Source of the DNA: an archaeon | Lineage (GTDB): Archaea; Asgardarchaeota; Thorarchaeia; Thorarchaeales; Thorarchaeaceae | Length of the DNA: 13,202 nucleotides | Reading direction: 5' to 3' | Assembly (NCBI GenBank): GCA_024275415.1 | Contig: JAJRZD010000115.1 | Span: forward strand, 1-13,202 | Shown: positions 1 through 13,202 of the stretch, piece by piece | How positions within the stretch are numbered: position 1 is the stretch's first letter | How the letters are laid out: each line of letters opens with the position of its first letter | Position numbers and translations under genes: made by a program | Notes under the pieces: model-generated | The model's database searches: none | The model's input: the letters and a program-made list of their open reading frames with translations, nothing else | Told to the model about the DNA's origin: nothing

Positions 1-231
1 ACCTACTGAACCTATATACTGATAGGCATCGCTCCCGTACAGGAAGGAGTATACAACAACTTCGATTACAGACACTAGTAATACTGGAATCACTGTAATC
101 ATCAAGTATTGCGGGAATCTCCTGCTCCAAAGTGAAATCGTCCGTGAAACAAGTCCCGTCCAGCTGACCGTAAAGTCTTGATCTTGTAGGTCTGCTGGCG
201 CCTCAAAAATTGGACCTTCGTCAAATGCCAA
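1..231 (-). CDS. Membrane protein, N-terminal 77 aa only (runs off the left edge; absent from the ORF track)
   Basis: Manual translation from TTG at 231: MAFDEGPIFEAPADLQDQDFTVSWTGLVSRTISLWSRRFPQYLMITVIPVLLVSVIEVVVYSFLYGSDAYQYIGSVG. The frame is open to base 1, a GAGGAGG RBS lies 7 nt upstream, and there is a hydrophobic TM-like segment (YLMITVIPVLLVSVIEVVVYSFLY). Confidence 0.65.
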   Translation of the reverse strand, partial: MAFDEGPIFEAPADLQDQDFTVSWTGLVSRTISLWSRRFPQYLMITVIPVLLVSVIEVVVYSFLYGSDAYQYIGSVG

Positions 232-238
232 GTTATGT

Positions 239-245
239 CCTCCTC
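239..245 (-). promoter_or_regulatory. Shine-Dalgarno site of the 1..231 gene
   Basis: GAGGAGG on the minus strand with a 7-nt spacer to TTG. Confidence 0.55.
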
Positions 246-269
246 ATACTTGAGAGGATACATGAACTC

Positions 270-275
270 TTATAA
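270..275. promoter_or_regulatory. Possible TATA box in the divergent intergenic region
   Basis: Palindromic TTATAA about 25 nt upstream of the minus-strand RBS. A second candidate, CTATAA at 327..332, lies upstream of dut. Confidence 0.3.
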
Positions 276-369
276 TCACTTTCTTTTTGACGCATCAGAA
301 ATCGTATTAGATTGTGATGGCAATCTCTATAACTCTCACCCAGTCTTTTGTTTCAGAGAGGAATCTGTA

Positions 370-813
370 ATGAAGGATGAGCAAGTCGTTGTGAAGGTGA
401 AGCGGCTCATATCGGGAAGTTTCCTACCGGCTCGAGCAAAAGAAGGGGATGCCGCTTTTGATTTGTATTCCATTACAGACCATATGATGATGCCCGGTGA
501 AACATATGGGGTGCCAACAGGTATTGCCTTGGAGATTCCTGCCGGATATGAAGGACAAGTACGCCCTAGAAGTGGACTGGCTTTGAAGCACGGAATCACA
601 ATCCTTAACTCACCTGGAACCATTGACAGCGGATATAGAGGAGAGGTCAAGATCATTGTCCATAACATGAGTGATGAGCCATTCAACATCACAAAAGGCA
701 TGAGGATTGCGCAGATAGCGATTCGCCCTGTTCCCGATGTCCAATTCATCGAGGTGGATACTCTTGAGGGATCTGATCGAGGTGACGGGGGATTCGGAAG
801 TACTGGCATTTGA
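370..813 (+). CDS. dut: Trimeric dUTP diphosphatase (dUTPase)
   Basis: All five dUTPase motifs are present: AAFDL, RPRSGLALK, GTIDSGYRGE, RIAQ, RGDGGFGSTG. Start reassigned from 235 to ATG 370 (MKDEQVVVKVKRL), which follows GAGGA; the 45 upstream codons do not resemble dUTPase and overlap the divergent gene's RBS/promoter. Confidence 0.95.
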   Translation: MKDEQVVVKVKRLISGSFLPARAKEGDAAFDLYSITDHMMMPGETYGVPTGIALEIPAGYEGQVRPRSGLALKHGITILNSPGTIDSGYRGEVKIIVHNMSDEPFNITKGMRIAQIAIRPVPDVQFIEVDTLEGSDRGDGGFGSTGI

Positions 814-899
814 TGTCTTCAGCGGAATGCTTTTCGATGAGCGGCAGTGGAAACTCCATCTATCTACACCGTCTGCTAGCAAGTGTCAGTGGCATTCTC

Positions 900-1442
900 T
901 CATCCCATCCTTCTGAGATACCACCCGATGTCTACAAGGTTCTTGGCGACCAGCTTTTCTTTTGAAAGCCTTACGAGCCGTTCTCCATCAATCGACAATG
1001 CCGCCAACCCAATGACCTGACCGTCTTGATCTATTACTACCACTCGTTGTCTGCGTTTCAGGGTAGTATTCAGCCTGACAACGCCCTCTTTGATTATGCT
1101 CTTTCCGTACGTGAATGATTCGGCACTTAACCTATTCACGATGATGATGTTCTCTGTAAGAGTGGATAGGTGTTCCAGAATAGGTAGACCCAGCCGAAAT
1201 CTCTCATCTACCATGTCACCTAGCCATAAGCCAATGTGATGCATCTCGAAATCATCAAGATTCTCATCCGCCAGTGTCATCCAGTCATAAGGGATTAGGT
1301 ATATCGACTGGGAGCCCTCTCTGGCTATGACGGCAGGCACTCGGTTGGCAAGGATACTCCTAGTAACGCCTTCTCCAAAGTCTGAATCAATCTGAGTCTG
1401 CACAGATTGCCACAGGATGGGATCTGCAAGTTCTAGTTTCAT
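900..1442 (-). CDS. nip7: NIP7-like ribosome biogenesis protein with C-terminal PUA domain
   Basis: AESFTYGKSIIKEGV and terminal DIGWYLRR match the NIP7 family pattern (xFLYGxxxxKxG ... DxGxYLR); PUA-type VVVIDQDGQVIGLA; AGGAG RBS upstream; adjacent to a NOP2-family gene. Confidence 0.85.
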   Translation of the reverse strand: MKLELADPILWQSVQTQIDSDFGEGVTRSILANRVPAVIAREGSQSIYLIPYDWMTLADENLDDFEMHHIGLWLGDMVDERFRLGLPILEHLSTLTENIIIVNRLSAESFTYGKSIIKEGVVRLNTTLKRRQRVVVIDQDGQVIGLAALSIDGERLVRLSKEKLVAKNLVDIGWYLRRMG

Positions 1443-1494
1443 TCATATCCAACTCCTATTTTCCCACGCACAGGCACGACTCGATAGATGATGA

Positions 1495-2478
1495 TCACCC
1501 TCCCTTCTTCATCTTGCACATGAAGAACCCCTCTGTCCCGTGAAGATGCGGGAGGAACCTACGAGCATGCTTCAACGAGTCATCCAATTGGACCCCATAC
1601 GGATTGGGATAACCCGGACTACCAAACTCGATGTCTATTGGGACGACTCTTATCTCAGGATATTTCCGCAGGATGTCATCGATGACGTATTCGTTTTCTT
1701 CCGGTGCTATCGAGCATGTCGCATATACGATTTCTCCTCCAACCGCTAACCGTCTGATTGCACTGTCAAGGAGTTCGTCCTGCCGTGTCGCACAGTAACG
1801 GATATCAGCCATTGATTTGCTGGTCTTTCTGGAGGGATCTAGAGGGATCAAACCTTCTCCAGAGCAAGGTGCATCAAGGAGTATCTTTGTCGGTTCGAGG
1901 CTGGTCTGGTCTATCTTTCGAGCATCGCCTCTGAGCACAATTGCGTTAGTGACACCGCATCTGAGGATGTTGCTCTTGAGACTGCTCAGACGCGACTTGT
2001 CCTGTTCTACAGCGATCACAAGTCCTGAATTATCCATCAACTGTGCGAGATGAGTCGTTTTTCCTCCTGGTGCAGCAGCTAGGTCTGCCACGATGTCATC
2101 CGGCTTAGGATCCAGCACTTCCACTGTTGTCATTGAAGGAACGCCCTGAATGTAATAGTATCCAAGCATGTACTCGATTAGGCTCCCCGGGGAGTACCCT
2201 TTGAAGTCGGAGTAGTATCCGTACTGCAGCCAATGTATCTTTTCGAGTCCAACGCCTTTCCGCTCAAGACTCTCCACGGTTGAACTAGCATCGTTCCTCA
2301 AAGGGTTGACCCTGATAGCGGTTCTGATCGGTTTCTCGCATGCACTGAGGAACCGCAACGTTTCTTCTTGCCCCCACAAGCTCAGGTATCTCTCAATCAT
2401 ATATGGCAGGTATCCGTACCTCTTAGCAAGCTCCTTTGCCTTTGTCTTGAGTTCACGACGGGACATTAAGCATATCAT
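1495..2478 (-). CDS. NOL1/NOP2/Sun (RsmB/RsmF) family RNA cytosine-C5 methyltransferase
   Basis: Motif I DLAAAPGGKT, motif IV LLDAPCSGEG, motif VI VYATCSIAPEENE (both catalytic Cys present), C-terminal GTEGFF. The ATG overlaps the deaminase stop (ATGA); alternative in-frame ATG at 2466. Confidence 0.93.
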   Translation of the reverse strand: MICLMSRRELKTKAKELAKRYGYLPYMIERYLSLWGQEETLRFLSACEKPIRTAIRVNPLRNDASSTVESLERKGVGLEKIHWLQYGYYSDFKGYSPGSLIEYMLGYYYIQGVPSMTTVEVLDPKPDDIVADLAAAPGGKTTHLAQLMDNSGLVIAVEQDKSRLSSLKSNILRCGVTNAIVLRGDARKIDQTSLEPTKILLDAPCSGEGLIPLDPSRKTSKSMADIRYCATRQDELLDSAIRRLAVGGEIVYATCSIAPEENEYVIDDILRKYPEIRVVPIDIEFGSPGYPNPYGVQLDDSLKHARRFLPHLHGTEGFFMCKMKKGG

Positions 2479-2930
2479 TCTCCAATATCTTCATCCCACA
2501 ACTCCGGCTTTTCCTTGATGAAGTTAGTCATGAGCTCGACACACCTGCTATCATCAAGGACATCGACCATGACACCTCTCGACATCAGGTATGACTCTGG
2601 GCCTTTGAATGTCCGGTTCTCGCCGACGACCACTTTCGGAATCTTGTAAAGCAGGACTGCTCCACTGCACATATCACAGGGAGAAAGTGTGGAGTACAGA
2701 ACCGCGCGTCTGTAGTCTTTCGCCTTCAACCGTCCTGCATTCTCGAGGCAGTCCATCTCGGCGTGGAGTACGACACTCCCTTCTTGCACTCGCTTGTTAT
2801 GACCTCGCCCTACGATATTGTCGTCAATCACAAGAACCGAACCAATCGGGATACCTCCTTCTTCTAGCCCTTTTACTGCTTCTTCGATCGCGGCGTTCAT
2901 GAACGTTGTATGTTCTTCCATTGGCATCAT
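2475..2930 (-). CDS. Zn-dependent cytosine/nucleoside deaminase, FCY1-type (CDA fold)
   Basis: HAE and PCDMC zinc motifs. EGGIPIG, GRGHNKR, LSPCDMCSGA, VVGENRTF and terminal WDEDIGE closely follow yeast Fcy1 as I recall it. Confidence 0.9.
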   Translation of the reverse strand: MMPMEEHTTFMNAAIEEAVKGLEEGGIPIGSVLVIDDNIVGRGHNKRVQEGSVVLHAEMDCLENAGRLKAKDYRRAVLYSTLSPCDMCSGAVLLYKIPKVVVGENRTFKGPESYLMSRGVMVDVLDDSRCVELMTNFIKEKPELWDEDIGE

Positions 2931-2936
2931 TCTCTC

Positions 2937-4184
2937 CTATCTTTCCAGTGCATCCACAAGCTCGGTCACATCAGGTGAAATGATTGGAACCTTGGGTGTC
3001 AGTCTGTCCGGTGTGGCTAGGTCTTTGAACCCTGAACCTGTGATAGGGACTACTACCTTGTCAGTCCTATCGATCGTGCCGTCATTCAGTAGATATTCCA
3101 AACCTGCGAGCGCTGCTACACCGCTGGGCTCTGCGAATATCCCTTCTTGCTTTCCGAGCAGAACGAGATACCGCTCGATGTCTTCATCCCGAACAGACAC
3201 TGCCTGACCATCGGCAATCTTTAGGTACTTGAGTGCTGCGTCGCCATCCCAGGGGAATGGGTCTGCCAGCCCTCCGGCAACCGTGTCATTCGAATCCCAC
3301 GGGATGATATCCAATGGGTCTTGGTTCTCTTTGAAAGCTCGCACGATGGGTGAACAACCTTCAGGCTGTACGACGACCGGATGCGGCAGGGACTCGATGA
3401 AACCAAGCTCCTTGAACTCCCAGAATCCCTTCATGGTGCCAGCCATGAGACCTCCGCTTCCTGTGGGAAATAGTATCCAATCTGGCACATCCCAGCTCAT
3501 CTGTTCGGCCATCTCATAACCCAGCGACTTGGTTCCTTCGAACTGAAAGCCATTGAATGGTCCGAACGATGGTGTCGGTGTCCATCCGAGTTCAGCGCAT
3601 GCACGGTTCAACAATGTAGTGGTTGGATCCACGCCCTCCTCGACCTTTCGTACCCTGAAAACATGAGCACCAAGGGTGCGAAGATGTATCAGCTTTCCAG
3701 CAGGTGCATTCTCAGGGACGAACACTACCGCCCTGAGCCCCGCCCTTGCAGCATAGGTCGCCATGGAGGCAGCCGCGTTCCCAGATGATGCGGCAGAAAC
3801 AGTTTCTACGCCGTCCTCTTTTGCCCGGGTCACTCCTACGCAGATTGGTCTGTCTTTAAAGGAACCCGATGGGTTCATGGTTTCTATCTTGAAGAACAGG
3901 TTACTCATCCCGAGCATCTCTGCCAAGTTATTGCTGAGGACTAAAGGAGTATTTCCCTCCCCTAACGAGATGGCACTCTCTTTTTTCCTGACTGGCATGA
4001 ACTCGAAGTATTTCCAAAGCCCCTCCTTCCGGCTCTCGATGTCTGCCTGTGTGATGGTATCCTTGATTGCTTCAAGGTCAAGGATTACATCGATTCGTCC
4101 GCCACACCCATCATTTGCAGGGACGGTATTCTCTTCGTATTCTTTCCCACACTTTGCACACTTGTATTGTCTGGTCGCAATCAC
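2937..4184 (-). CDS. thrC: Threonine synthase-like fold-type II PLP enzyme with N-terminal Zn-ribbon; substrate uncertain
   Basis: CAKCG ribbon, SLGEGNTPL, NPSGSFKDR (PLP Lys110), SSGNA, EGTKSLGYE, PTGSGG, AEPSG, TGSGFKD. GTG start preceded by GGAGGTTGGTGA. Confidence 0.85.
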   Translation of the reverse strand: MIATRQYKCAKCGKEYEENTVPANDGCGGRIDVILDLEAIKDTITQADIESRKEGLWKYFEFMPVRKKESAISLGEGNTPLVLSNNLAEMLGMSNLFFKIETMNPSGSFKDRPICVGVTRAKEDGVETVSAASSGNAAASMATYAARAGLRAVVFVPENAPAGKLIHLRTLGAHVFRVRKVEEGVDPTTTLLNRACAELGWTPTPSFGPFNGFQFEGTKSLGYEMAEQMSWDVPDWILFPTGSGGLMAGTMKGFWEFKELGFIESLPHPVVVQPEGCSPIVRAFKENQDPLDIIPWDSNDTVAGGLADPFPWDGDAALKYLKIADGQAVSVRDEDIERYLVLLGKQEGIFAEPSGVAALAGLEYLLNDGTIDRTDKVVVPITGSGFKDLATPDRLTPKVPIISPDVTELVDALER

Positions 4185-4188
4185 GATG

Positions 4189-4200
4189 TCACCAACCTCC
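4189..4200 (-). promoter_or_regulatory. Shine-Dalgarno region of the thrC-like gene
   Basis: GGAGGTTGGTGA upstream of GTG 4184. Confidence 0.55.
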
Positions 4201-4308
4201 TACCCCTGAGTTGTACTCTCGTTAAGTGAGTTTCGTTCACTGATGCATAGAAAGACCTAACACAATGCTATATGATGAACCTATCATCGCCTGTCTGGTG
4301 GGAATACA

Positions 4309-4902
4309 ATGAATACATCCAGTTTCGAGGTCGAGGTGAAAATCCCTATCCAAGATGTAGAAGAGGTGGAACGGAAAATACGGGAGGTAGGCGGGGTGAA
4401 GACGAATAGCGAAACCCAGATTGACACCTATTTCAACCATCCGTGCAGAAACTTTGAGAGCACAGACGAGGCACTGCGGATAAGGAAAAGGGAACGAATC
4501 TCTGTCAGCAATAGCAGTTCAGCCGTTCCTGATACAAAGGTCGAGGTCACCTTCAAGGGCCCTAAGATTGATGATACCACCAAGACCCGTGTCGAGGTGT
4601 CCGCTGCCGTCAATGATGCTGTTAGTATGAGTTCCATCCTATCATACCTTGGATTCCGCGAAGTGGCGACTATCGTCAAAGAACGTATTTTTTTCACACT
4701 CGGTGATATGGTCGTAAGCATTGACTCTGTTAAGAAGGTCGGGACCTTCCTCGAAGTGGAGCAAATCGTCGAATCAGAGGACATGGTTCCTGAAACAAAA
4801 GATATGATATTCACATTCCTTGACAGTATCGGGTTGGAACGTGAAGATTCGATTAGGGAATCTTATCTCGAGCTATATCTGGAACGAACATCCTCTTCCT
4901 GA
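4309..4902 (+). CDS. cyaB: CYTH-domain protein (class IV adenylate cyclase CyaB family / triphosphate tunnel metalloenzyme)
   Basis: N-terminal EVEVK (ExExK), QIDTYF, ALRIR, TFKGP, R.E, K.R, D.V..VG.FLEVE, SYLEL. Actual cyclase activity cannot be inferred; many CYTH proteins are triphosphatases. Confidence 0.9.
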   Translation: MNTSSFEVEVKIPIQDVEEVERKIREVGGVKTNSETQIDTYFNHPCRNFESTDEALRIRKRERISVSNSSSAVPDTKVEVTFKGPKIDDTTKTRVEVSAAVNDAVSMSSILSYLGFREVATIVKERIFFTLGDMVVSIDSVKKVGTFLEVEQIVESEDMVPETKDMIFTFLDSIGLEREDSIRESYLELYLERTSSS

Positions 4903-4924
4903 TAGAATACATCGTCCGGTTTCA

Positions 4925-4961
4925 TCAGATTCGGCTCTTCATTATCTTCTATCCTCATCAT
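4925..4961 (-). ncRNA. Candidate box C/D guide sRNA (compact, single guide)
   Basis: Intergenic ATGATGA (box C, 4961-4955) and CTGA (box D, 4928-4925). The segment GAAGAGCCGA (4940-4931) is complementary to UCGGCUCUUC of the LSU rRNA peptidyl-transferase region. No clear C'/D' pair. Confidence 0.3.
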
Positions 4962-4999
4962 CTGCGGCATTCTATCGAGTTCTCACAAACCGACTGCAT

Positions 5000-5024
5000 G
5001 GTTGAAGGCCGACGGCCTTCAACC
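5000..5024. terminator. Perfect 11-bp hairpin between convergent genes (terminator/processing or REP-like element)
   Basis: GGTTGAAGGCC-GAC-GGCCTTCAACC, extendable with ATG/CAT across one bulge. Confidence 0.45.
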
Positions 5025-5041
5025 CATCTTTAAATCCGATG

Positions 5042-5404
5042 TTAACGCAGCAGCCAGACGGCATCGACAGAAGTGACTTCTCCCAATGTGATAAATGATG
5101 TCACTTCTCCACGTACGACAACGATGGATCCTAAAGCCGGTTTGTCACCATCCCATGTGAACGCGAGGGAATTCCCATCGTCGTCAGTTATCGTCATGAC
5201 GTCCTGAAATATGAATGTCAGCTCACCTTTTACAGTGACCTTTGTTCCAGTACTCACATCTCCACTATTGATATCGCCTATTGATGTAACTCCTATCAAT
5301 CCGTCATGCCATGCTACGACACTGACAGCTATAACAGCAACAACCGCGATAACAAGAACAACTCGTTTGTTCGATTTTCCAGATTTTCGTTTCTTTTTTG
5401 GCAT
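5042..5404 (-). CDS. Membrane-anchored extracytoplasmic OB-fold-like protein
   Basis: Basic N-terminus (MPKKKRKSGKSNKR), one hydrophobic helix, then a beta-rich domain with IGDI....G..VTVKGEL and VVVRGEV strands typical of OB barrels. Confidence 0.65.
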   Translation of the reverse strand: MPKKKRKSGKSNKRVVLVIAVVAVIAVSVVAWHDGLIGVTSIGDINSGDVSTGTKVTVKGELTFIFQDVMTITDDDGNSLAFTWDGDKPALGSIVVVRGEVTSFITLGEVTSVDAVWLLR

Positions 5405-5434
5405 TGGCGCTCAGGGGAACGATTACCATTGCCC

Positions 5435-5456
5435 TATAATAATTAAGTGGCTTAAT
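5435..5456. promoter_or_regulatory. AT-rich promoter-like segment with a 6-3-6 inverted repeat
   Basis: TTATTATA on the minus strand about 30 nt upstream of ATG 5404, abutting ATTAAG-TGG-CTTAAT (5442..5456). Confidence 0.25.
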
Positions 5457-5484
5457 AGACTCTGTGTGTTTTTGACACCGTGAT

Positions 5485-6132
5485 TCACTCCACTATGGAC
5501 GCTTCTTCTCTCAGACGTTCGACGAACTTCTTTAGCAATTCGTGTCTTTCATCGGCAAGGTGGCGTGCAACATCTGTGTAAAGGAGGCTCCGTAACTTTA
5601 GCAGCTTCTCGTAGGCATGATTGATGAATCCTGTAATACCCGTTCCAGAAACAGATGCCTGTGCAATCGATCTGAACACGCCCACTGCGCCCATCGCATC
5701 GAGCTTGTCCGCATCACTTAGTATCTTTCCTTCAAGTGAAGTAGGTTCAAGGCCTTCGCTGAAACGGTGTGTCCTGATCGCCTCTACGACTCCCTGTATC
5801 TCATCTTCATTGTATCCTATATCCTTTAGAAACTCTCTACTCATTTCCCCTGATATGACCGAGTGAGATTTACCTAGCTCACGCTCAAATGGTCGTCCAA
5901 TGTCATGCAACAATGCTGCGGCACATAGCACTCGCAAATTAGCACCTAGTTTCTGCCCGACCTCCATGCATAGACGAAGGACTCGTCTTGAATGATCATG
6001 TGTGTGTGCTCCCTTTCCGTTACTTTCCAGTATCCTTCTTGCGTATGCGTCAACCATCTTTTCTGGGAACATGCTTTTCTCACAACTCATTGCCTTTTCC
6101 CGTTCTTTCGCAAAATCGACCGGTTCCACCAT
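5485..6132 (-). CDS. HD-domain metal-dependent phosphohydrolase (YedJ/YpgQ-like)
   Basis: AHTHDHSRRV, AALLHDIG, SH, AIRTHRFS, LSDADKLDAMGAVG, C-terminal A.ERH. The true start may be a downstream Met. Confidence 0.9.
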   Translation of the reverse strand: MVEPVDFAKEREKAMSCEKSMFPEKMVDAYARRILESNGKGAHTHDHSRRVLRLCMEVGQKLGANLRVLCAAALLHDIGRPFERELGKSHSVISGEMSREFLKDIGYNEDEIQGVVEAIRTHRFSEGLEPTSLEGKILSDADKLDAMGAVGVFRSIAQASVSGTGITGFINHAYEKLLKLRSLLYTDVARHLADERHELLKKFVERLREEASIVE

Positions 6133-6152
6133 ATTAAATCACCGACTATGCC

Positions 6153-6166
6153 AGAAACGCTTTAAT
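6153..6166. promoter_or_regulatory. Possible BRE/TATA in the divergent HD / surface-protein promoter region
   Basis: AGAAACGCTTTAAT; reads TTAAAG on the minus strand about 28 nt before the HD ATG. Confidence 0.25.
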
Positions 6167-6253
6167 CATTAGGTGCCGTCTGAATAATGCTAATTAGAAG
6201 TACGCCTTTCTTACACTGATAAGCGCCACTGATGGCAACGAGAGGTATTAGAC

Positions 6254-9200
6254 TTGAGTGCCACGGAAACCGTTACAAAACGCAAAGTTGGAGCATCCAC
6301 AATCCTTAGTGCAATTTTCATCGTTGCTATGGTTGTCTGGGGAACCTATTCACTGGTTATGATTTCCATGGACAAAGTTCGCTCGGAAGAACCCCATGTT
6401 CAACTGGAAGACATCGAGCCATGGAACTACAATATTGACTGGGCTGGAGGACGCTCTAACTGGTTTGACGACATCAACTACACCGACCTCCCACTCGACC
6501 AACAGCTCCCCCAGGATCTTCTGGATCAGCTCAATAATACACTTTTTTTGGTTCGTCCTGCTGATCCAGCACAATTGTGGCGTGGTACAGCTTATGACCT
6601 CTACGATGGGTCTGGATGGAGCAAGTCGTTATCCGGAGGTACTTTCTCCCTCTCCCCCATATCGCGAGCTTCAGCCGCCAATCAAATTTATACTATCAGC
6701 ATGAACGTTTCGGTAAGTGCGAACGTGGAACCGATAGAACTGCCGTCTCTCTTCCCAGAGATTCAGGTCATTGAGGACTCTTTTAGGACCATCCCCGCAG
6801 ACGCATTGATTGATTATTACCTCGAAACAGATGAATATGATACGCTATTGTTGTATCCTTTTTTGGCTGGCAATCTTGGCGACACTGTCCTATTGGAATA
6901 TGACATCAGCTATGTCGATCAGGATCTGGCCACCATTGAAGCGAACGCCCTGCATGGTTCAGCTGCTGAGGCCGGTATTGCAACAGACTATGGACGGTCT
7001 GCCACCACAGTCGAACTCTCATCGATTGTATTGGACGAGATTGCGCCTTTCAGATCTGACACAGCCACTGCCTATGAACAAGCCATGGCGGTGGACTTGT
7101 ACTTCAAGACCAACTACGAGTTGATGATGAACGAGAGCCAGATTAATGAGCGACCTGATGGTCAGGAGGTCACTGAATGGCTAATCGAGCGAGGTGGTGG
7201 TCTGCCGATGGATTTTGCCACCGCGTACAGTGTATTCATGAGGGAACTGGACATTCCCGCTAGGATGACAATTGGATATGCGATGGGCGACCCGAATCCC
7301 GATGGTAGTGATTCGCGTCTTGTCAAGGTGCTTCATATGATGTTCTGGGTTGAAGTATTCATCCCTACCAGCACTACAGATGGAGAATGGATCCAAGTTA
7401 TCCCTGTGCCGCTCCCATCGGATTTTGGAGGTGGCGATCTTCCCCAGAACACAGGTGCCAGCAACGTCACCATCCTCGTTGGCACTCCCGAGAATATTGC
7501 ATTGCAGCTGATTGACCCTACCTCACCTCTTATCCCACAATGGTCAATGATTGGTGACCCTTTCAACCTTAGTGCGATGGTTCTGGTCAATGGGCAGCCC
7601 TATGTGGGTTCGGAACCTATCCGTTTTTATGACCTGACGGATGGTGTTGAAATTGGAACGACCCCAATCCAATTCACTCCTGATGGACAGCACTTACCCC
7701 TTGCCAATATCACTTACGCATTTCCTGATGGTTCTACAGTTGGCGCTCACAATATATCCGCAATGTGGATTACCTCCACATTTCTGGCTACCGGCTACAC
7801 ATCTTGGGCGGCAGTTGGACAATCAAGCCCCTCTGTCCCTGTGCAACCTTTCACGTTCACTCCCAGCGAAACCATCCAGATGGACATCAAGCTTGGACTT
7901 AATAACTACACGGCACAGTGGGTAGACACCCTGCATGTGTTCGGGGTCATGACCATTGGTGGTTCCCCTGCTAATGGCACCCGTCTGGCTGAATTGGGGA
8001 ATGACCAGATGTGGATAATGTGGGATGGACTATGGTATGCGAATGCAACCATTGGCCCTGACGGATACTATGAATACTATATCTATCTTGATCCCACAGA
8101 CCTTGTCCGGATGACGGCTGGACAACATAACGTGTCCGCTTTTTATGCAGGCGCAACTGACCCTGAAACAGGGATTCCAGTAGTACTTGCCGGCAGTTCC
8201 GATAATTCTACAGTGACGCTTAGTGCGGTCGTGGGTTTTGATTTGACAGTGACACCAACAACCTCCTATGGTGGAGGCACTATAACCTACGACGGTAACC
8301 TCTACCTCCTGAATGGAACCCAACTCGTTGGAGAAACAGTAGGCATTCTGTTTGACGGCGCAGTGGTGGATACCACTATAACCAATGGCACTGGTGGTTT
8401 CAACTATGGCTATGTTATTCCTCTTGCACAGTCGTCAGGCGACTACCTTGCTCAAGTTAATTTCACCTCTACGATTCCATTAGTGAACGGTAACACTAGT
8501 CTGCCCGTTACAGTGACCGTAGAAAGCGGTGCTACGACTCTTACGATTGATTCGACCCCAAAGGATCCACAGGCTGTTCACACCTACGAGAATATCACGA
8601 TTTTCGGCACACTCACTGTGACCTCTGACGGGACGCCGCTTGGTGGCCGAGTTGTTGACATCTACTGGGACTGGAACAATGGGACTGTACAACTCCTCGG
8701 CTCCAATACGACGGATGCAGTCGGTTATTACACGTTCACCTACCAAATCCCTGCATATTCGGAAGGGCTAGCCACCTACTGGACTGAGTTCAGTTCATTG
8801 GAGCCAAACTATCAGTCTTCTGCCTCACCTATGATGAACATCACTGTGAAACGATATGATGTGATTGTATCCATCGAAACAATCCAGAGTTCAGTGGTCA
8901 TAGGGGAAACGTTGGATATCCAAGGAACTGTCTATCTCCCAGAAATTCCAGCTCTCCTCGGGGGTGTATCAGTGGATCTATGGTGGGATAACGGGTCGAT
9001 ATACAACATTGCCACTGTAGTTACCAATACTGGTACGGGCATCTACATTTTCAACTATACAGTTCCCATTACACACCCTCTTCAAACAGTTTCACTTTGG
9101 GCCAACTACACATCCACCTCTCCCGCACTCTACAGCAACGAGTCGGTTCATCTCCCAATAGTTGTCAGGAACTATGACTCATACATCTCGGTGAATGCGA

Positions 9201-12200
9201 ACTCATCGGTGATTCATCTAAATGAAACTGTGTACATCTACGGTTATCTTGAACATGAGAATGGGACTCCTCTTACGGGAATGCTCGTGACCATCACTTG
9301 GAACAATGGCACAGACTACAACTTCCAAGCTTATACTAATGCCACCGGCTGGTACAACTTCTACTATAATTGTTCTTTATCTCAGGATTCTGAAGGGACC
9401 GTCACAGTCACAGTCGCTCATGTTTCCGTGGACATAACTTACAGTGGCTCAACTGCCATACTGAGCCCCTCTCTTACGCTCCAGCTGTATCAGCTTACGA
9501 TTACTTCGTCCGTGAATCCCAATCCTGTTCATCTTGACGAGTCTTTCATTTTTGATGGTGTCCTTACATTTGATGTGAATGGGAAACCATTAGCAGGTGC
9601 TACTATCTTGATATTCTACCAATATGAGAATGGCACAACATACTCCTTACCAAAGGTGACGAACTCTACTGGCGGGTTCTTATTCCAGTATAACTGTTCA
9701 CTCAGTGACACAATAGGAGCGATATATGTCTGGGGTCAGTACATCAGTAGTGATCCTCTCTGGGACAATGCGACCTCGCTCACGCACACAGTCAATCTGA
9801 TATTATACTCCATGACACTTACGACGTTCACAAATAGCACATCCTATTTCATCGATGAAGCAGTATTTATCTGGGGGCGGTTGACGTATTCGCATAATGG
9901 CACCCCACTGGACAATCAACCTATCACAATCTACTGGCTGGATACAGGATTGCAGACCCTTGGCCCTGTGTATACTAACTCAACTGGCTACTTCAACTAC
10001 ACCTACCAGCTCATGCCCGGGGTAGACCCGGAGGGTTCTGTCACGGTCTGGGCAGCGTTTAACACGACTGTCCCATTATGGGATAATGCGAGTTCCACGC
10101 CTGGGGTGACCTTCTCCGTCACCAGATATGCAGTGACAATCGATATCACTGTGACTCCTAACCCTGTCTACCTCAATGAGACCCTGACTATCCAAGCACA
10201 TGCCTATTTCACTCATAACGGGTCTGACGTAGCATGGATTCTCCTTTCGTTCTATTGGAACAACGGCACAGTTCATCTGCTGGGAAGCTACACGACAGAC
10301 TTGACAGGATGGACACAATTTACGTATTCAGGGATGGACAACGATTCAGTTTGGACTTCGATTGACGTTTATGCGACATTCTCAGGCAATCTCCTCCTTT
10401 CAAGTGCAGAATCGAACCATGTGAGCCTCACACTCCAACAATGGGCCACGCTGTTCGTTAATGTGGGTACAGGAGGAATCACCAGTTACAAGCTTGGTGA
10501 AACTGTGGTGATTACTGGGCTGTTCTATTATGATGTTGTCGGCCCAGACATCCCCTATGGCAGTGCGACCATTGAGGTCCTTGTCGATGGAACACCTGTG
10601 AATACTACCATCACCATATCTGATGGCTCTTTCACTGGCTACTGGACAATTCCTATAGATACCACGACAGGCTCACACGACATAACTGTCAGGTTCACAT
10701 CACCAGTGAACTGGATTGCAGGTACGACATATTCACCTGCTATTTCTCTCACTATCGATGCGGTCAATATCATCTGGACTTTTGATGCCACGCCCGACCC
10801 TGTCTACAGGGGTGAGTGGCTCTACATATCCGGGACTCTGGATTTGGACAACGGGAGTGTGTATGCAGGTGCGACTGTCACGATTTACTGGCAAAGCCCC
10901 TCGCAATCAATACCATCTGAGATTGCAGTGCGCGTGACAGACGGAAGTGGCTTCTTCGAGCTATGGTACCAGGTCAGTGACACTGCAGAACTGGGGCTGA
11001 CGACAATACTAGTTGATTGCTCTTCTGGTACGCCAGTGATTGCCTACAGCACGGCAACCGATCTGGTCACTGTTGAATTGATTCCTGTCGTTCTTATTGG
11101 GAGTGGGAGTGTTACTGACACTATCTATCTAGGTGATACGATTGATTTCTCTGGCACGCTGACCTTTGGCAATGGAACCCCCATGGTCGGGTATGAAGTG
11201 TCGATAATATGGGACTATTCAGTACTAGCCACAATAACCATTGAGGATGCAGTTACTGGCTCCTTCTCTTACTCGTATCTTCTTCCTTGGGACGAGTCGG
11301 TTCGTAACATCACATACTTCATAGAATTCAATAGGCCTTCGGAGGCATATCAAGAATCTCAAACTAACGACACCTATCTGGAGATTCGTGATACGGTCGC
11401 CATAACCTTAGATTCTCAGACTGTAGATGTTGTATTCAGAGGCGACCTTTTGACGATTTCTGGAACTGTCACGAATGGCGGTGGTGCTGATGGAGGTGTC
11501 CCCATCGAGGTGCTGATTGACGGCGCGCCGTCTGGACAATATGATGTGACCGATTCTGAGGGCCGGTTCTCTGTAGATCTCTTGATTCGAAACAGCATCT
11601 CCCCTGACCTTCATAACTTCACTGTATCTATCAACTCCGCCTATTACGATGTAAGCAGTGCTCCTGCATATTGGGAGGTTGAAGTCCACATAACCTCGAC
11701 TATCACCATTGCATTCGATGACCTATCTGATGTAGTACCCACACAGCAGTTTACAATCAGTTTTACAGTGATTGACGAAGACGGCAACACTCCTGTAGGC
11801 GATTATGTTTCGGTATACCTCAATGATACTTACATCACCGATTTACGGATTAGTGACGGTCTTAACACGTGGTCAATCACATTGCCATCGTCTTGGTCAG
11901 GAGGTTCTGGGTACTTTATTGCAGTGGTCGAGTGGGATGGCTCCACCTATGTGGAAGGCGCCGTTGGAGAAACGGATGATTCCATTCATGTGTATGATAG
12001 TGCAGAGTTCACATCATTTGGTCCTCCCTATGCAGCAGTCAACAGCCGTGTCAGACTGACGGGGCAATTGATAGACGGTGCGGGCAACCCTATCGTCGGT
12101 GCTACAATTCGCCTTTATCTGAACCGCACTCCTTCACCTGGTGGTATCTCGGCAACCGTCACTACTGACGCGTCGGGAGTGTTCTCTTATATTCTCCCAT

Positions 12201-12478
12201 CCCAATTCACCGAAACAGGCTCCTATTTCTTCGTTGCAGAGTTTGTTATGGGTGATGGAACACTCGTCACTGGAAGACATGACTTCGAGATCACGCTTGG
12301 AGCCCCACCGGGATTCGACACAGCTTTGTTAATTACGTGGGTTGTAGCAATAGGGATTGAGTTGTTCATTGCAATGGTCATTATTGCACGATACCGATAT
12401 AACCGTGGAAGCTCTAGGTTATTTGGGTTCAGACTTCGAAGCAGGTCGTCGGACATATATGATTCATTGGTAAGGTGA
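6254..12478 (+). CDS. Giant cell-surface protein: TM anchor + TgpA-like transglutaminase-fold module (triad apparently lost) + about 15 Ig-like repeats + C-terminal TM
   Basis: TTG start 7 nt after GAGGT; N-terminal TM (ILSAIFIVAMVVWGTYSLVMI); LWRGTAYDLYDGSGWS (TgpA N-domain-like); DFATAYSVFMRELDIPARMTIGY and WVEVF (TGase core); about 105-aa beta-rich repeats; TM at 12323..12388; Arg-rich tail. Confidence 0.9.
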   Translation: MSATETVTKRKVGASTILSAIFIVAMVVWGTYSLVMISMDKVRSEEPHVQLEDIEPWNYNIDWAGGRSNWFDDINYTDLPLDQQLPQDLLDQLNNTLFLVRPADPAQLWRGTAYDLYDGSGWSKSLSGGTFSLSPISRASAANQIYTISMNVSVSANVEPIELPSLFPEIQVIEDSFRTIPADALIDYYLETDEYDTLLLYPFLAGNLGDTVLLEYDISYVDQDLATIEANALHGSAAEAGIATDYGRSATTVELSSIVLDEIAPFRSDTATAYEQAMAVDLYFKTNYELMMNESQINERPDGQEVTEWLIERGGGLPMDFATAYSVFMRELDIPARMTIGYAMGDPNPDGSDSRLVKVLHMMFWVEVFIPTSTTDGEWIQVIPVPLPSDFGGGDLPQNTGASNVTILVGTPENIALQLIDPTSPLIPQWSMIGDPFNLSAMVLVNGQPYVGSEPIRFYDLTDGVEIGTTPIQFTPDGQHLPLANITYAFPDGSTVGAHNISAMWITSTFLATGYTSWAAVGQSSPSVPVQPFTFTPSETIQMDIKLGLNNYTAQWVDTLHVFGVMTIGGSPANGTRLAELGNDQMWIMWDGLWYANATIGPDGYYEYYIYLDPTDLVRMTAGQHNVSAFYAGATDPETGIPVVLAGSSDNSTVTLSAVVGFDLTVTPTTSYGGGTITYDGNLYLLNGTQLVGETVGILFDGAVVDTTITNGTGGFNYGYVIPLAQSSGDYLAQVNFTSTIPLVNGNTSLPVTVTVESGATTLTIDSTPKDPQAVHTYENITIFGTLTVTSDGTPLGGRVVDIYWDWNNGTVQLLGSNTTDAVGYYTFTYQIPAYSEGLATYWTEFSSLEPNYQSSASPMMNITVKRYDVIVSIETIQSSVVIGETLDIQGTVYLPEIPALLGGVSVDLWWDNGSIYNIATVVTNTGTGIYIFNYTVPITHPLQTVSLWANYTSTSPALYSNESVHLPIVVRNYDSYISVNANSSVIHLNETVYIYGYLEHENGTPLTGMLVTITWNNGTDYNFQAYTNATGWYNFYYNCSLSQDSEGTVTVTVAHVSVDITYSGSTAILSPSLTLQLYQLTITSSVNPNPVHLDESFIFDGVLTFDVNGKPLAGATILIFYQYENGTTYSLPKVTNSTGGFLFQYNCSLSDTIGAIYVWGQYISSDPLWDNATSLTHTVNLILYSMTLTTFTNSTSYFIDEAVFIWGRLTYSHNGTPLDNQPITIYWLDTGLQTLGPVYTNSTGYFNYTYQLMPGVDPEGSVTVWAAFNTTVPLWDNASSTPGVTFSVTRYAVTIDITVTPNPVYLNETLTIQAHAYFTHNGSDVAWILLSFYWNNGTVHLLGSYTTDLTGWTQFTYSGMDNDSVWTSIDVYATFSGNLLLSSAESNHVSLTLQQWATLFVNVGTGGITSYKLGETVVITGLFYYDVVGPDIPYGSATIEVLVDGTPVNTTITISDGSFTGYWTIPIDTTTGSHDITVRFTSPVNWIAGTTYSPAISLTIDAVNIIWTFDATPDPVYRGEWLYISGTLDLDNGSVYAGATVTIYWQSPSQSIPSEIAVRVTDGSGFFELWYQVSDTAELGLTTILVDCSSGTPVIAYSTATDLVTVELIPVVLIGSGSVTDTIYLGDTIDFSGTLTFGNGTPMVGYEVSIIWDYSVLATITIEDAVTGSFSYSYLLPWDESVRNITYFIEFNRPSEAYQESQTNDTYLEIRDTVAITLDSQTVDVVFRGDLLTISGTVTNGGGADGGVPIEVLIDGAPSGQYDVTDSEGRFSVDLLIRNSISPDLHNFTVSINSAYYDVSSAPAYWEVEVHITSTITIAFDDLSDVVPTQQFTISFTVIDEDGNTPVGDYVSVYLNDTYITDLRISDGLNTWSITLPSSWSGGSGYFIAVVEWDGSTYVEGAVGETDDSIHVYDSAEFTSFGPPYAAVNSRVRLTGQLIDGAGNPIVGATIRLYLNRTPSPGGISATVTTDASGVFSYILPSQFTETGSYFFVAEFVMGDGTLVTGRHDFEITLGAPPGFDTALLITWVVAIGIELFIAMVIIARYRYNRGSSRLFGFRLRSRSSDIYDSLVR
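7460..12300 (+). repeat. Tandem array of about 15 diverged Ig-like (bacterial Ig/invasin-like) protein repeats
   Basis: Recurring pattern [V/Y]xxGExxxIxGxL...NGTPLxGxxVxIxWxNG...TxxxGxFxxxY...W with a period of about 100-110 aa. The repeat is visible at protein level only. Confidence 0.75.
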
Positions 12479-12479
12479 T

Positions 12480-12938
12480 ATGATGCAGTTACTCAATATA
12501 GCAATGCCAGCGATTGCGCTCACTGGAGCAGTCATTGTGGTGCTCTTGTACCTGTACTATGTTAAAGGGATGTTTCGTAGCACCCCTCGAACTGTAACAT
12601 CTGTGGACATTCCTGGCAAACTACGGAACATAAAGAAGCTGGCTGATGCTGGCAAGTACGAAGGCGCGATAACCCTTGCATATCGCACTTTTGAGCAGAT
12701 GTGTGGGATGAAGATGGGTTCGGAGCGGATGCCCTCTGAAACCGCTCGCGAGTACATTGAGCGTGTATTGAAGGCTATACCTCTTGACGCAGAATCTGTA
12801 GAGTCCTTTGTGCAAGCATATGAGGAATCCCGGTTCTCGAATCACACTGTGACCAGAGACCGTTACGAGCTTGCAATCAAGATATTCACTGACATCTACC
12901 CCCGGATTGAGGGTGCTACCATAACTAGGGCGCGATGA
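12480..12938 (+). CDS. Membrane-anchored DUF4129-domain protein
   Basis: N-terminal TM, then AGKYEGAITLAY, PSETAREY and YEESRFSNH, the DUF4129 pattern. Starts 1 nt after the upstream stop, which lies inside an AGGTGA RBS. Confidence 0.8.
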   Translation: MMQLLNIAMPAIALTGAVIVVLLYLYYVKGMFRSTPRTVTSVDIPGKLRNIKKLADAGKYEGAITLAYRTFEQMCGMKMGSERMPSETAREYIERVLKAIPLDAESVESFVQAYEESRFSNHTVTRDRYELAIKIFTDIYPRIEGATITRAR

Positions 12939-12959
12939 TATGATGATGCGATTCCAGTT

Positions 12960-12966
12960 GGAGTGA
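12960..12966 (+). promoter_or_regulatory. Shine-Dalgarno site of the DUF4350-like gene
   Basis: GGAGTGA with a 5-nt spacer to ATG 12972. Confidence 0.5.
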
Positions 12967-12971
12967 TATAG

Positions 12972-13202
12972 ATGGGTTGGAAGGAAGCTCTGCAGATTAC
13001 AGTCTTCATTCTGGCATTGATCCCGATTGGATACCTTGGCATCACTACGATGGCTAACTATAATCAGGAGTACCAATATGACTTTTCCATCTACAACACA
13101 AACTGGAATGGTTTGAGTGAGTTCAGGACAGATATCGAACAAAGTGGGTATCGTGTACAGACAATACAATCCTCTATGAGCGTTATCAGTAGGTATCGCG
13201 GG
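12972..13202 (+). CDS. DUF4350-like secreted/membrane protein, N-terminal 77 aa (runs off the right edge; absent from the ORF track)
   Basis: Manual translation: MGWKEALQITVFILALIPIGYLGITTMANYNQEYQYDFSIYNTNWNGLSEFRTDIEQSGYRVQTIQSSMSVISRYRG. TM/signal helix followed by FSIYNTNWNGLSEF, matching the archaeal DUF4350 N-terminal motif (FSxYNxxWNGxSxF); typical DUF4129 context. Confidence 0.75.
   Translation, partial: MGWKEALQITVFILALIPIGYLGITTMANYNQEYQYDFSIYNTNWNGLSEFRTDIEQSGYRVQTIQSSMSVISRYRG

Follow-up and report, generated by a model that had tools for sequence, protein, structure and literature searches.

A putative glycan-shielded arm of a TgpA/MoxR/DUF58 envelope module in a Thorarchaeaceae genome

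Overall Architecture of the Stalk Protein

A 13,202-nt stretch of an Asgard archaeal genome (contig JAJRZD010000115.1, assembly GCA_024275415.1, positions 1 to 13,202 of the forward strand; Asgardarchaeota, Thorarchaeia, Thorarchaeales, Thorarchaeaceae), hereafter the window, was analyzed around a single open reading frame (ORF) of 2,074 aa at 6254..12478 on the + strand. This ORF encoded a TgpA-like surface protein, here called the stalk protein, and covered the whole of the region that the initial annotation had described as a glycosylatable stalk. On balance, the stalk is probably the glycan-shielded extracellular arm of an Asgard TgpA/MoxR/DUF58 envelope module, and it looks like a core component of the cell envelope and not a free-standing adhesin. 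The single copy of the gene, its synteny with housekeeping genes, the positional orthology of its domains and its DUF4129-DUF4350-MoxR-DUF58 operon all favored such a core module over the cell-cell contact apparatus that the initial annotation had suggested.

The domain order comprised an N-terminal transmembrane (TM) helix, a transglutaminase-like head, 15 beta-sandwich domains, a C-terminal TM helix and an Arg-rich tail. All coordinates below are those of the window, and these features lie on the + strand. The first helix (TM1, aa ~15-38, 6296..6367) was located by hydropathy and agreed with an AlphaFold2 helix at residues 14-38. The head consisted of an N-terminal beta domain (aa 78-219, 6485..6910), which aligned with the periplasmic domain of TgpA, and of a transglutaminase-like core (aa 225-385, 6926..7408) supported by Pfam, alignment and Foldseek. 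After the beta-sandwich array came the second helix (TM2, aa 2023-2045, 12320..12388, by hydropathy) and a predicted cytoplasmic tail (12389..12475) with eight Arg/Lys and two Asp/Glu residues. No family was assigned to the stalk protein in an NCBIfam search, and its database annotation was "transglutaminase domain-containing protein" only.

The gene started with TTG at 6254, just downstream of a Shine-Dalgarno-like site (GAGAGGT), and the homologues of the stalk protein opened with the same MS...R.MG.TTI N-terminus. The TTG start and the upstream GAGAGGT thus restored the N-terminus common to the homologues. The automatic gene call (P0002, 2,039 aa) began at M36, inside TM1, so that the first helix was truncated (window 6254-6361).

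Transglutaminase-Like Head

The match to Transglut_core (PF01841) at aa 270-382 scored 41.9 bits against a cut-off of 23. The AlphaFold2 model of the head found its top Foldseek matches in the periplasmic domain of TgpA (6g4h/6g49, E ~4e-12, TMt 0.62-0.63), and by sequence, too, the same TgpA entry from Pseudomonas aeruginosa was the nearest solved structure. TgpA (PA2873) was therefore the closest solved relative of the head by both structure and sequence. The two proteins also shared their general plan: in TgpA, TM helices flank a transglutaminase-like ectodomain, DUF4129 follows the last helix (6g49/6g4h), and the operon partners of the gene include MoxR, an ATPase of the AAA_3 type, and DUF58/vWA. 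Four differences set the stalk protein apart. TgpA has a longer TgpA_N membrane region, whereas the stalk protein has one N-terminal helix; it has retained none of the catalytic Cys, His and Asp; an insert of about 1,600 aa of beta-sandwiches separates its core from its C-terminal helix; and in this clade DUF4129 is carried on a TM protein of its own.

In the alignment to TgpA 6g49, the positions of the catalytic Cys, His and Asp were held by Pro/Met, Met and Ile, and the triad was absent in all 108 relatives examined. The motif around the lost triad was near-invariant (GGLPxDFATAY, R330, R337, H361, E367, W379, and Q381), and the head was the best-conserved part of the protein, with a median identity of 50-53% among relatives. 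Since the head has lost its catalytic triad, it is probably a binding domain. Relatives of ordinary size (717-815 aa) shared ~24-32% identity with the head.

Distant Asgard homologues of 1,170-1,852 aa (L018:7243-10755 (+), L019:7138-10647 (-), and L017:7474-13032 (+)) had kept the His and the Asp/Glu and had lost the Cys. The decay of the triad thus seems to have been stepwise, with Cys the first to go. In one Asgard family (G024:C1:575272-577170 and G086:C1:54383-56353), the head was matched twice in tandem within one frame of ~1,580 aa, which suggests a duplicated transglutaminase-like head.

Protein 4.2, which is catalytically inactive, and the animal transglutaminases (7uzs, 8cs9, and 1ggu) also have, in this order, a beta-sandwich, a transglutaminase core and two beta-barrel/sandwich domains. 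Their likeness to the stalk protein was at the level of the fold only (9-11% identity, root-mean-square deviation (rmsd) ~30 Å overall), and unlike it they are soluble proteins of the cytoplasm or secreted ones that lack a long repeat array.

Beta-Sandwich Repeat Array

A hidden Markov model (HMM) was grown iteratively from one repeat of the stalk protein itself. It detected 13 back-to-back repeats of 98-107 aa each at aa 664-2017 (E 1e-25 to 1e-35), and it gave two marginal matches at aa 426-522 (E 0.017) and 557-643. An AlphaFold2 model of aa 1-663 built with 48 homologues (mean pLDDT 83.7) contained confident beta-sandwiches at aa 405-521 and 540-657. The 13 HMM repeats plus these two sandwiches gave 15 domains in total (D1-D15, window 7466-12304), which agreed almost exactly with the initial annotation of about 15 repeats of 100-110 aa at 7460-12300. 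Most of the domains adjoined without linkers, as judged from the HMM boundaries.

The positions of the domains are given here with their numbers of N-glycosylation sequons, defined as N-x-S/T where x is not P. D1 (aa 405-521, 7466..7816, 3 sequons) and D2 (aa 540-657, 7871..8224, 5 sequons) were the divergent sandwiches, recognized by AlphaFold2 and the marginal HMM matches. They were followed by D3 (aa 664-764, 8243..8545, 4 sequons), D4 (aa 768-873, 8555..8872, 4 sequons) and D5 (aa 874-979, 8873..9190, 4 sequons). A central block variable in copy number comprised D6 (aa 980-1084, 9191..9505, 6 sequons), D7 (aa 1085-1190, 9506..9823, 4 sequons) and D8 (aa 1191-1297, 9824..10144, 6 sequons), and D9 (aa 1298-1402, 10145..10459, 4 sequons) was the last sequon-rich domain. 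The sequon-poor C-terminal block started with D10 (aa 1406-1509, 10469..10780, 1 sequon) and continued through D11 (aa 1510-1615, 10781..11098, 1 sequon), D12 (aa 1617-1720, 11102..11413, 3 sequons), D13 (aa 1721-1820, 11414..11713, 1 sequon), D14 (aa 1821-1919, 11714..12010, 1 sequon) and D15 (aa 1920-2017, 12011..12304, 1 sequon), the last being the best match to CarboxypepD_reg and Big_1 in Pfam. D3 to D15 were delimited by the HMM, to which AlphaFold2 was added for D3-D9 and Pfam for D15.

The AlphaFold2 model of aa 664-1402 (seven repeats) reached a pLDDT of 91.5 and was all-beta, with ~7-8 strands per repeat. Compared by Foldseek/VIA-align, it matched tandem immunoglobulin (Ig)/macroglobulin (MG) proteins with Z 12-13, namely PirB and the MG domains of C5, C3, A2ML1, CD109 and the Escherichia coli protein ECAM. 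Beta-sandwich folds were thus found in the domains modeled (D1-D2 and D3-D9), and to this extent the "Ig-like" of the initial annotation held. By sequence, however, the repeats belonged to the CarboxypepD_reg/MG (prealbumin) class and not to the classical Ig class. The Pfam names they received were CarboxypepD_reg (54.4 bits, cut-off 32.3), DUF6795 (60.8, cut-off 27.4), MG2 (35.5, cut-off 32.8), MG4 (28.4, cut-off 24.7) and Big_1, and each of the four scores given exceeded its cut-off.

The MG2 and MG4 matches, together with the complement and macroglobulin proteins among the top fold matches, speak for another arrangement, in which the sandwiches would coil into a compact ring or superhelix as in alpha-2-macroglobulin and complement C3/C5. 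The seven-repeat model had a pTM of 0.49, too low to fix the geometry from domain to domain. Still, we regard such a cage as highly improbable. Superposition gave an rmsd of 20-60 Å over 3-7 domains, indicating that the model was not ring-shaped; no thioester, bait, CUB or receptor-binding domain was matched in Pfam; the protein had only three Cys, none of them in a CxEQ motif; and the gain and loss of whole central domains among relatives would be poorly tolerated by a closed cage. A thioester/macroglobulin (A2M) identity was ruled out, as there was no A2M, TED or CUB match in Pfam, no bait and no CxEQ.

Pairwise identity between the repeats was 9-37%, and the closest pair was formed by the central neighbors D6 and D7. 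The motifs that had first pointed to tandem duplication were all present: WNNGT occurred three times, TNxTG four times, and YNCSLS and PLWDNAxS twice each. At the DNA level, TRF found no tandem repeat in the stalk gene except a 15-nt microrepeat, and thus no sign of a recent DNA-level duplication. Together with the low identity between repeats, this indicated that the duplications were old.

N-Glycosylation Sequons

The stalk protein contained 53 sequons (roughly 50 in the initial annotation), compared with 20.0 expected from its composition. Shuffling the protein 2,000 times gave 19.9 ± 3.9 sequons and a maximum of 33. Its density of 2.56 sequons per 100 aa was 4.6-fold the proteome mean (0.56), and by sequon z it ranked second when all 2,537 non-overlapping ORFs of the genome with 150 aa or more were compared. 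All 53 sequons fell between TM1 and TM2, and they were indeed densest in the central repeats, with a peak at aa 900-1400.

The sites were conserved. Among 93 full-length relatives, 27 alignment columns carried a sequon in at least 60% of the proteins, and the Asn was retained at a rate of 0.51 at sequon sites vs. 0.28 at other Asn positions. The sequons sat in conserved turns of the repeats (NGT-P-L-x-G, W-N-N-G-T, and T-N-x-T-G). The uneven density along the chain was conserved as well: per 100 aa, the relatives carried 1.1 sequons in the head, ~2.9 in D1-D2, 3.2-5.3 in D3-D9 and 0.9-1.9 in D10-D15.

An STT3/AglB oligosaccharyltransferase gene was present in the genome, and N-x-S/T was the sequon used in the only published Asgard glycoproteome (PMC11284389). 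The excess of sequons, the conservation of their sites, the predicted outside location and the presence of STT3/AglB suggest that the stalk may be N-glycosylated.

Topology and Anchoring

Hydrophobic helices at both termini had been noted from the start, and TM1 and TM2 bore this out. KRK stood before TM1, and the segment behind TM2 had eight Arg against two acidic residues. Between the helices, the 1,985 residues were acidic and Lys-poor, Lys making up 0.6% of the whole protein. According to the positive-inside rule and hydropathy, both termini would be cytoplasmic and everything between the helices would be outside. This charge distribution and the confinement of all sequons to the part between the helices pointed to an extracellular and not a cytoplasmic location of the array, as initially proposed.

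The hydrophobic run of TM1 measured ~24-28 residues, which is too long for a typical signal peptide. The helix and its juxtamembrane segment were conserved, with W29, R43, P47 and H48 kept in 90% or more of the relatives. In relatives, a weak TgpA_N match, in which only the last part of the 333-position Pfam profile was matched, covered the last N-terminal helix, a permanent anchor in TgpA. The length of the run, the conserved residues and the homology to the last TgpA_N helix favored the retention of TM1, which is probably an uncleaved signal anchor with the N-terminus inside. It is accordingly rather likely that the chain is tethered at both ends.

A beta-sandwich domain measures ~4 nm, so the 15 domains have a contour length of ~60 nm. 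The extended reach of 60 nm put forward by the initial annotation corresponds to this contour length. With both ends in the same membrane, the array would have to bend into an arch or hairpin no more than ~30 nm high or lie along the surface, and the double tether, given that TM1 looks permanent, would thus halve the rise. Sequons were scarce toward both ends and abundant in the middle, a pattern that suits an arch whose apex is exposed.

If TM1 were cleaved, the stalk protein would be a singly anchored adhesin or contact fiber reaching ~55-65 nm from its C-terminal anchor, and the dead head at its tip would bind a partner cell, a surface or a polymer. The array resembled the extenders of giant adhesins, since 6xi3 (Z 12.4) and invasin 1cwv (Z 12.1) were among the fold matches of the repeat model. 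These proteins, with SiiE 2yn3 and MpIBP 4p99, likewise have long end-to-end runs of ~100-aa beta-sandwiches that project a terminal domain. The mostly linkerless junctions are those of rigid stalks, the good conservation of the head and its paucity of sequons would be expected of a binding tip, and Asgard cells, which lack a surface layer (S-layer), show "complex surface proteins" (PMC9834061).

We nevertheless consider a free fiber unlikely, although less so than the compact cage. The properties of TM1 described above argue against its cleavage. Several giant adhesins are stiffened by Ca2+ (according to their PDB titles), while the sequons of the stalk would give it an N-glycan decoration. 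Adhesin genes commonly occur in several copies and differ from strain to strain. The variable, often multi-copy and strain-specific content of the giant adhesins was not seen here: the stalk gene was single-copy, phylum-wide, syntenic, positionally orthologous domain by domain and placed at the opening of a MoxR operon, and its product is probably double-anchored.

Operon and Genomic Context

The stalk gene was followed, 2 nt past its stop, by a gene for a 152-aa partner with a TM helix and a cytoplasmic DUF4129 (12480..12938, +). The first 77 codons of a DUF4350 gene (12972..13202, +) then ran off the end of the contig. The last 141 nt of the contig (window 13062-13202) were identical to the first 141 nt of another contig of the genome, C7, which indicated that the two were adjacent. 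On C7, the operon continued with the rest of DUF4350 (4-1296), MoxR (AAA_3, 1312-2301), DUF58/vWA (2329-3648) and a polytopic membrane protein (3648-5051). This last protein had no Pfam match, and its close homologue had ~8 hydrophobic segments.

The order stalk-DUF4129-DUF4350-MoxR(AAA_3)-DUF58/vWA-unnamed protein was kept in eight relatives, including three distant Asgard families. In relatives, the AAA_3 match reached an E-value of 2.9e-61 and the DUF58 match 6e-34, and the same MoxR matched bpMoxR at only 3.3e-9. The three-gene operon of MoxR, vWA and a transglutaminase-like (TGL) protein is widespread and was predicted to act at the membrane (PMC3495828). TgpA is reported to matter for the viability of P. 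aeruginosa (PMC3507681).

In many relatives, the stalk protein and DUF4129 formed one fusion protein, with a single helix ahead of DUF4129. In the clade of this genome, the stalk protein had its own TM helix and Arg-rich tail, and the separate DUF4129 ORF kept the ancestral TM helix (window 12320-12938). TM2 was only 8.7% identical to the family. A split of DUF4129 from the stalk by a stop-codon mutation was ruled out by this arrangement, in which the stalk has an extra helix and tail of its own and the ancestral helix remains on the DUF4129 ORF.

A 15-domain filament, a transglutaminase-like head, MoxR and DUF58/vWA in one operon recall the EsrA/Esr threat-sensing clusters of Actinomycetales, in which a secreted filament of 14 Ig-like domains with a terminal sensing domain is encoded with a transglutaminase protein as well as MoxR and vWA (bioRxiv 10.64898/2026.09.08.750141). 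By analogy, the stalk could be a surface sensor: binding at a sensing head exposed by the filament would be passed across the membrane to MoxR and vWA, which would trigger a response. Several differences make this a doubtful explanation, which we rate below the single-anchor fiber. No beta-propeller was detected in the stalk protein with Pfam, and the operon genes scanned included no kinase, phosphatase or FHA gene; the upstream neighbors in the window were housekeeping enzymes, syntenic in relatives. The MoxR was far nearer to AAA_3 than to bpMoxR. The Esr transglutaminase is a separate protein with a proposed role in filament attachment, whereas here it is a dead domain within the filament. 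Finally, the sensors of conflict systems diversify, whereas the head here was the most conserved part.

A similar combination is found in the PFNA cluster of Bifidobacterium, which is reported to have five core genes, one of them for an FN3 protein, and to link an FN3-type beta-sandwich surface protein with MoxR and a transglutaminase (PMC8430577). In that cluster, unlike here, two different genes encode the FN3 protein and the transglutaminase.

Distribution and Copy-Number Variation

The head was matched in 162 of the 201 sampled Asgard genomes, and the named homologues of the stalk protein were almost all from Thorarchaeota. A literature search returned no paper combining "Thorarchaeota" and "transglutaminase". 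Of 18 genomes from the same family, 17 had one copy of the gene. The sizes of the open frames clustered by family, at ~780-810, 1,150-1,260, 1,470-1,590, 1,853 and 1,750-2,405 aa. Counted with the repeat HMM, the repeats numbered 5-6 in the 1,170-aa relatives, 12 in the 1,852-aa relative and 9-18 in Thorarchaeia.

Within Thorarchaeia, the domains were collinear and positionally orthologous, and the copy number changed only in the central D6-D8. The extra domains of the longer proteins were copies of D6-D8, such as a D8 triplication in a relative of 2,272 aa and a D6-D7-D6-D7 series in another relative, and D8 was missing in 56% of relatives. The number of repeats thus does vary among related genomes, a check that the initial annotation had proposed, and the variation within Thorarchaeia was confined to this block. 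The expansion of the central repeats by tandem duplication, which had been read from their shared motifs, was borne out by this gain and loss, but it took place over deep evolutionary time.

Proposed Role in the Envelope Module

Taking the stalk as an arm of the TgpA/MoxR/DUF58 module, we infer that it is anchored at both ends, that part of it acts as a spacer and that it is coupled to MoxR. The protein would enter the membrane with its N-terminus inside and display its head outside, where the triad-less domain would probably bind something without cutting or cross-linking it. The chain would then pass through 15 end-to-end beta-sandwiches and return via TM2 to the Arg-rich cytoplasmic tail. 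The neighboring TM-DUF4129 protein would link the stalk to DUF4350, the MoxR AAA+ ATPase, DUF58/vWA and the polytopic membrane protein. The seven central domains (D3-D9) would serve as a glycan-shielded spacer of adjustable length, and the sequon-poor head and six C-terminal domains would probably lie near the membrane or be engaged with partners.

Several points weigh against this proposal. Asgard glycosylation was found to be infrequent and concentrated on one solute-binding protein (PMC11284389), and the excess of sequons may therefore overstate their real occupancy. For the topology, only hydropathy and the positive-inside rule were used, and the sequon pattern fits a single-anchor fiber equally well, with the head at the tip and D10-D15 buried among surface proteins. 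In the protease system that Zhang and Aravind predicted (PMC3495828), the TGL domain lies in a cytoplasmic loop, whereas the head here is dead and, by its predicted topology, would be outside. The placement of the stalk in the TgpA/MoxR/DUF58 module names its partners and not its activity.

The domains are already known, as are this type of operon and sequon-rich surface proteins in archaea. New, as far as we found, is a TgpA-type protein that joins a dead head to ~1,600 aa of inserted sandwiches, is distributed across the phylum and has a stalk length set by lineage. It is an extreme natural variant of the TgpA/MoxR/DUF58 module, with a dead enzyme and a 15-domain spacer, and as such it argues that neither transglutaminase nor protease chemistry is indispensable to the module. 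Among known prokaryotes, Asgard archaea are the nearest relatives of eukaryotes, and a single-copy, heavily glycosylatable, MoxR-linked surface protein is a testable candidate component of their envelope.

A bolder and quite speculative extension, which we hold to be improbable as it stands, is that a glycan-coated, double-anchored arch of ~0-18 domains, depending on lineage, is coupled, mechanically or by conformation, via DUF4129 to the MoxR ATPase and forms an ATP-driven surface machine organizing the Asgard envelope or contacts with partner cells. The MoxR AAA+ ATPase belongs to the closest prokaryotic kin of dynein and midasin (PMC3495828). As a piece of the same extension, the stalk family could be part of the "complex surface proteins" that cryo-electron tomography revealed on S-layer-free Asgard cells (PMC9834061).

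Neighboring Genes and Other Sequon-Rich Proteins

The block upstream of the stalk gene (window 235-6132) encoded a dUTPase, a UPF0113/PUA protein, an RsmB/F-type methyltransferase, a cytidine/dCMP deaminase, a pyridoxal phosphate (PLP)-dependent enzyme, and CYTH and HD proteins. From the PUA gene through the HD gene, these housekeeping genes were syntenic with the stalk gene across the Thorarchaeia relatives. An ORF on the minus strand (12621-13202, 182-193 aa) was considered spurious, as it overlapped the DUF4129 and DUF4350 genes and had no family match.

The repeat HMM matched only two other ORFs in the genome, both weakly, and a role of the repeat family as a shared module of surface proteins was thereby ruled out. 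At least 12 other giant ORFs of the genome (1,700-2,650 aa) carried 36-67 sequons, 2-3.7 times the expectation. Sequon richness is thus a trait of the large surface proteins of this organism and not unique to the stalk protein, and, with the repeat HMM nearly restricted to the latter, the other giant proteins are built from different domains. The giant sequon-rich ORFs included C1:63018-70961, C109:1305-7883, C45:30699-36095 and C94:1634-4138, as well as two adjacent genes of ~2,590 aa on contig C38 (4398-12161 and 12158-19957).

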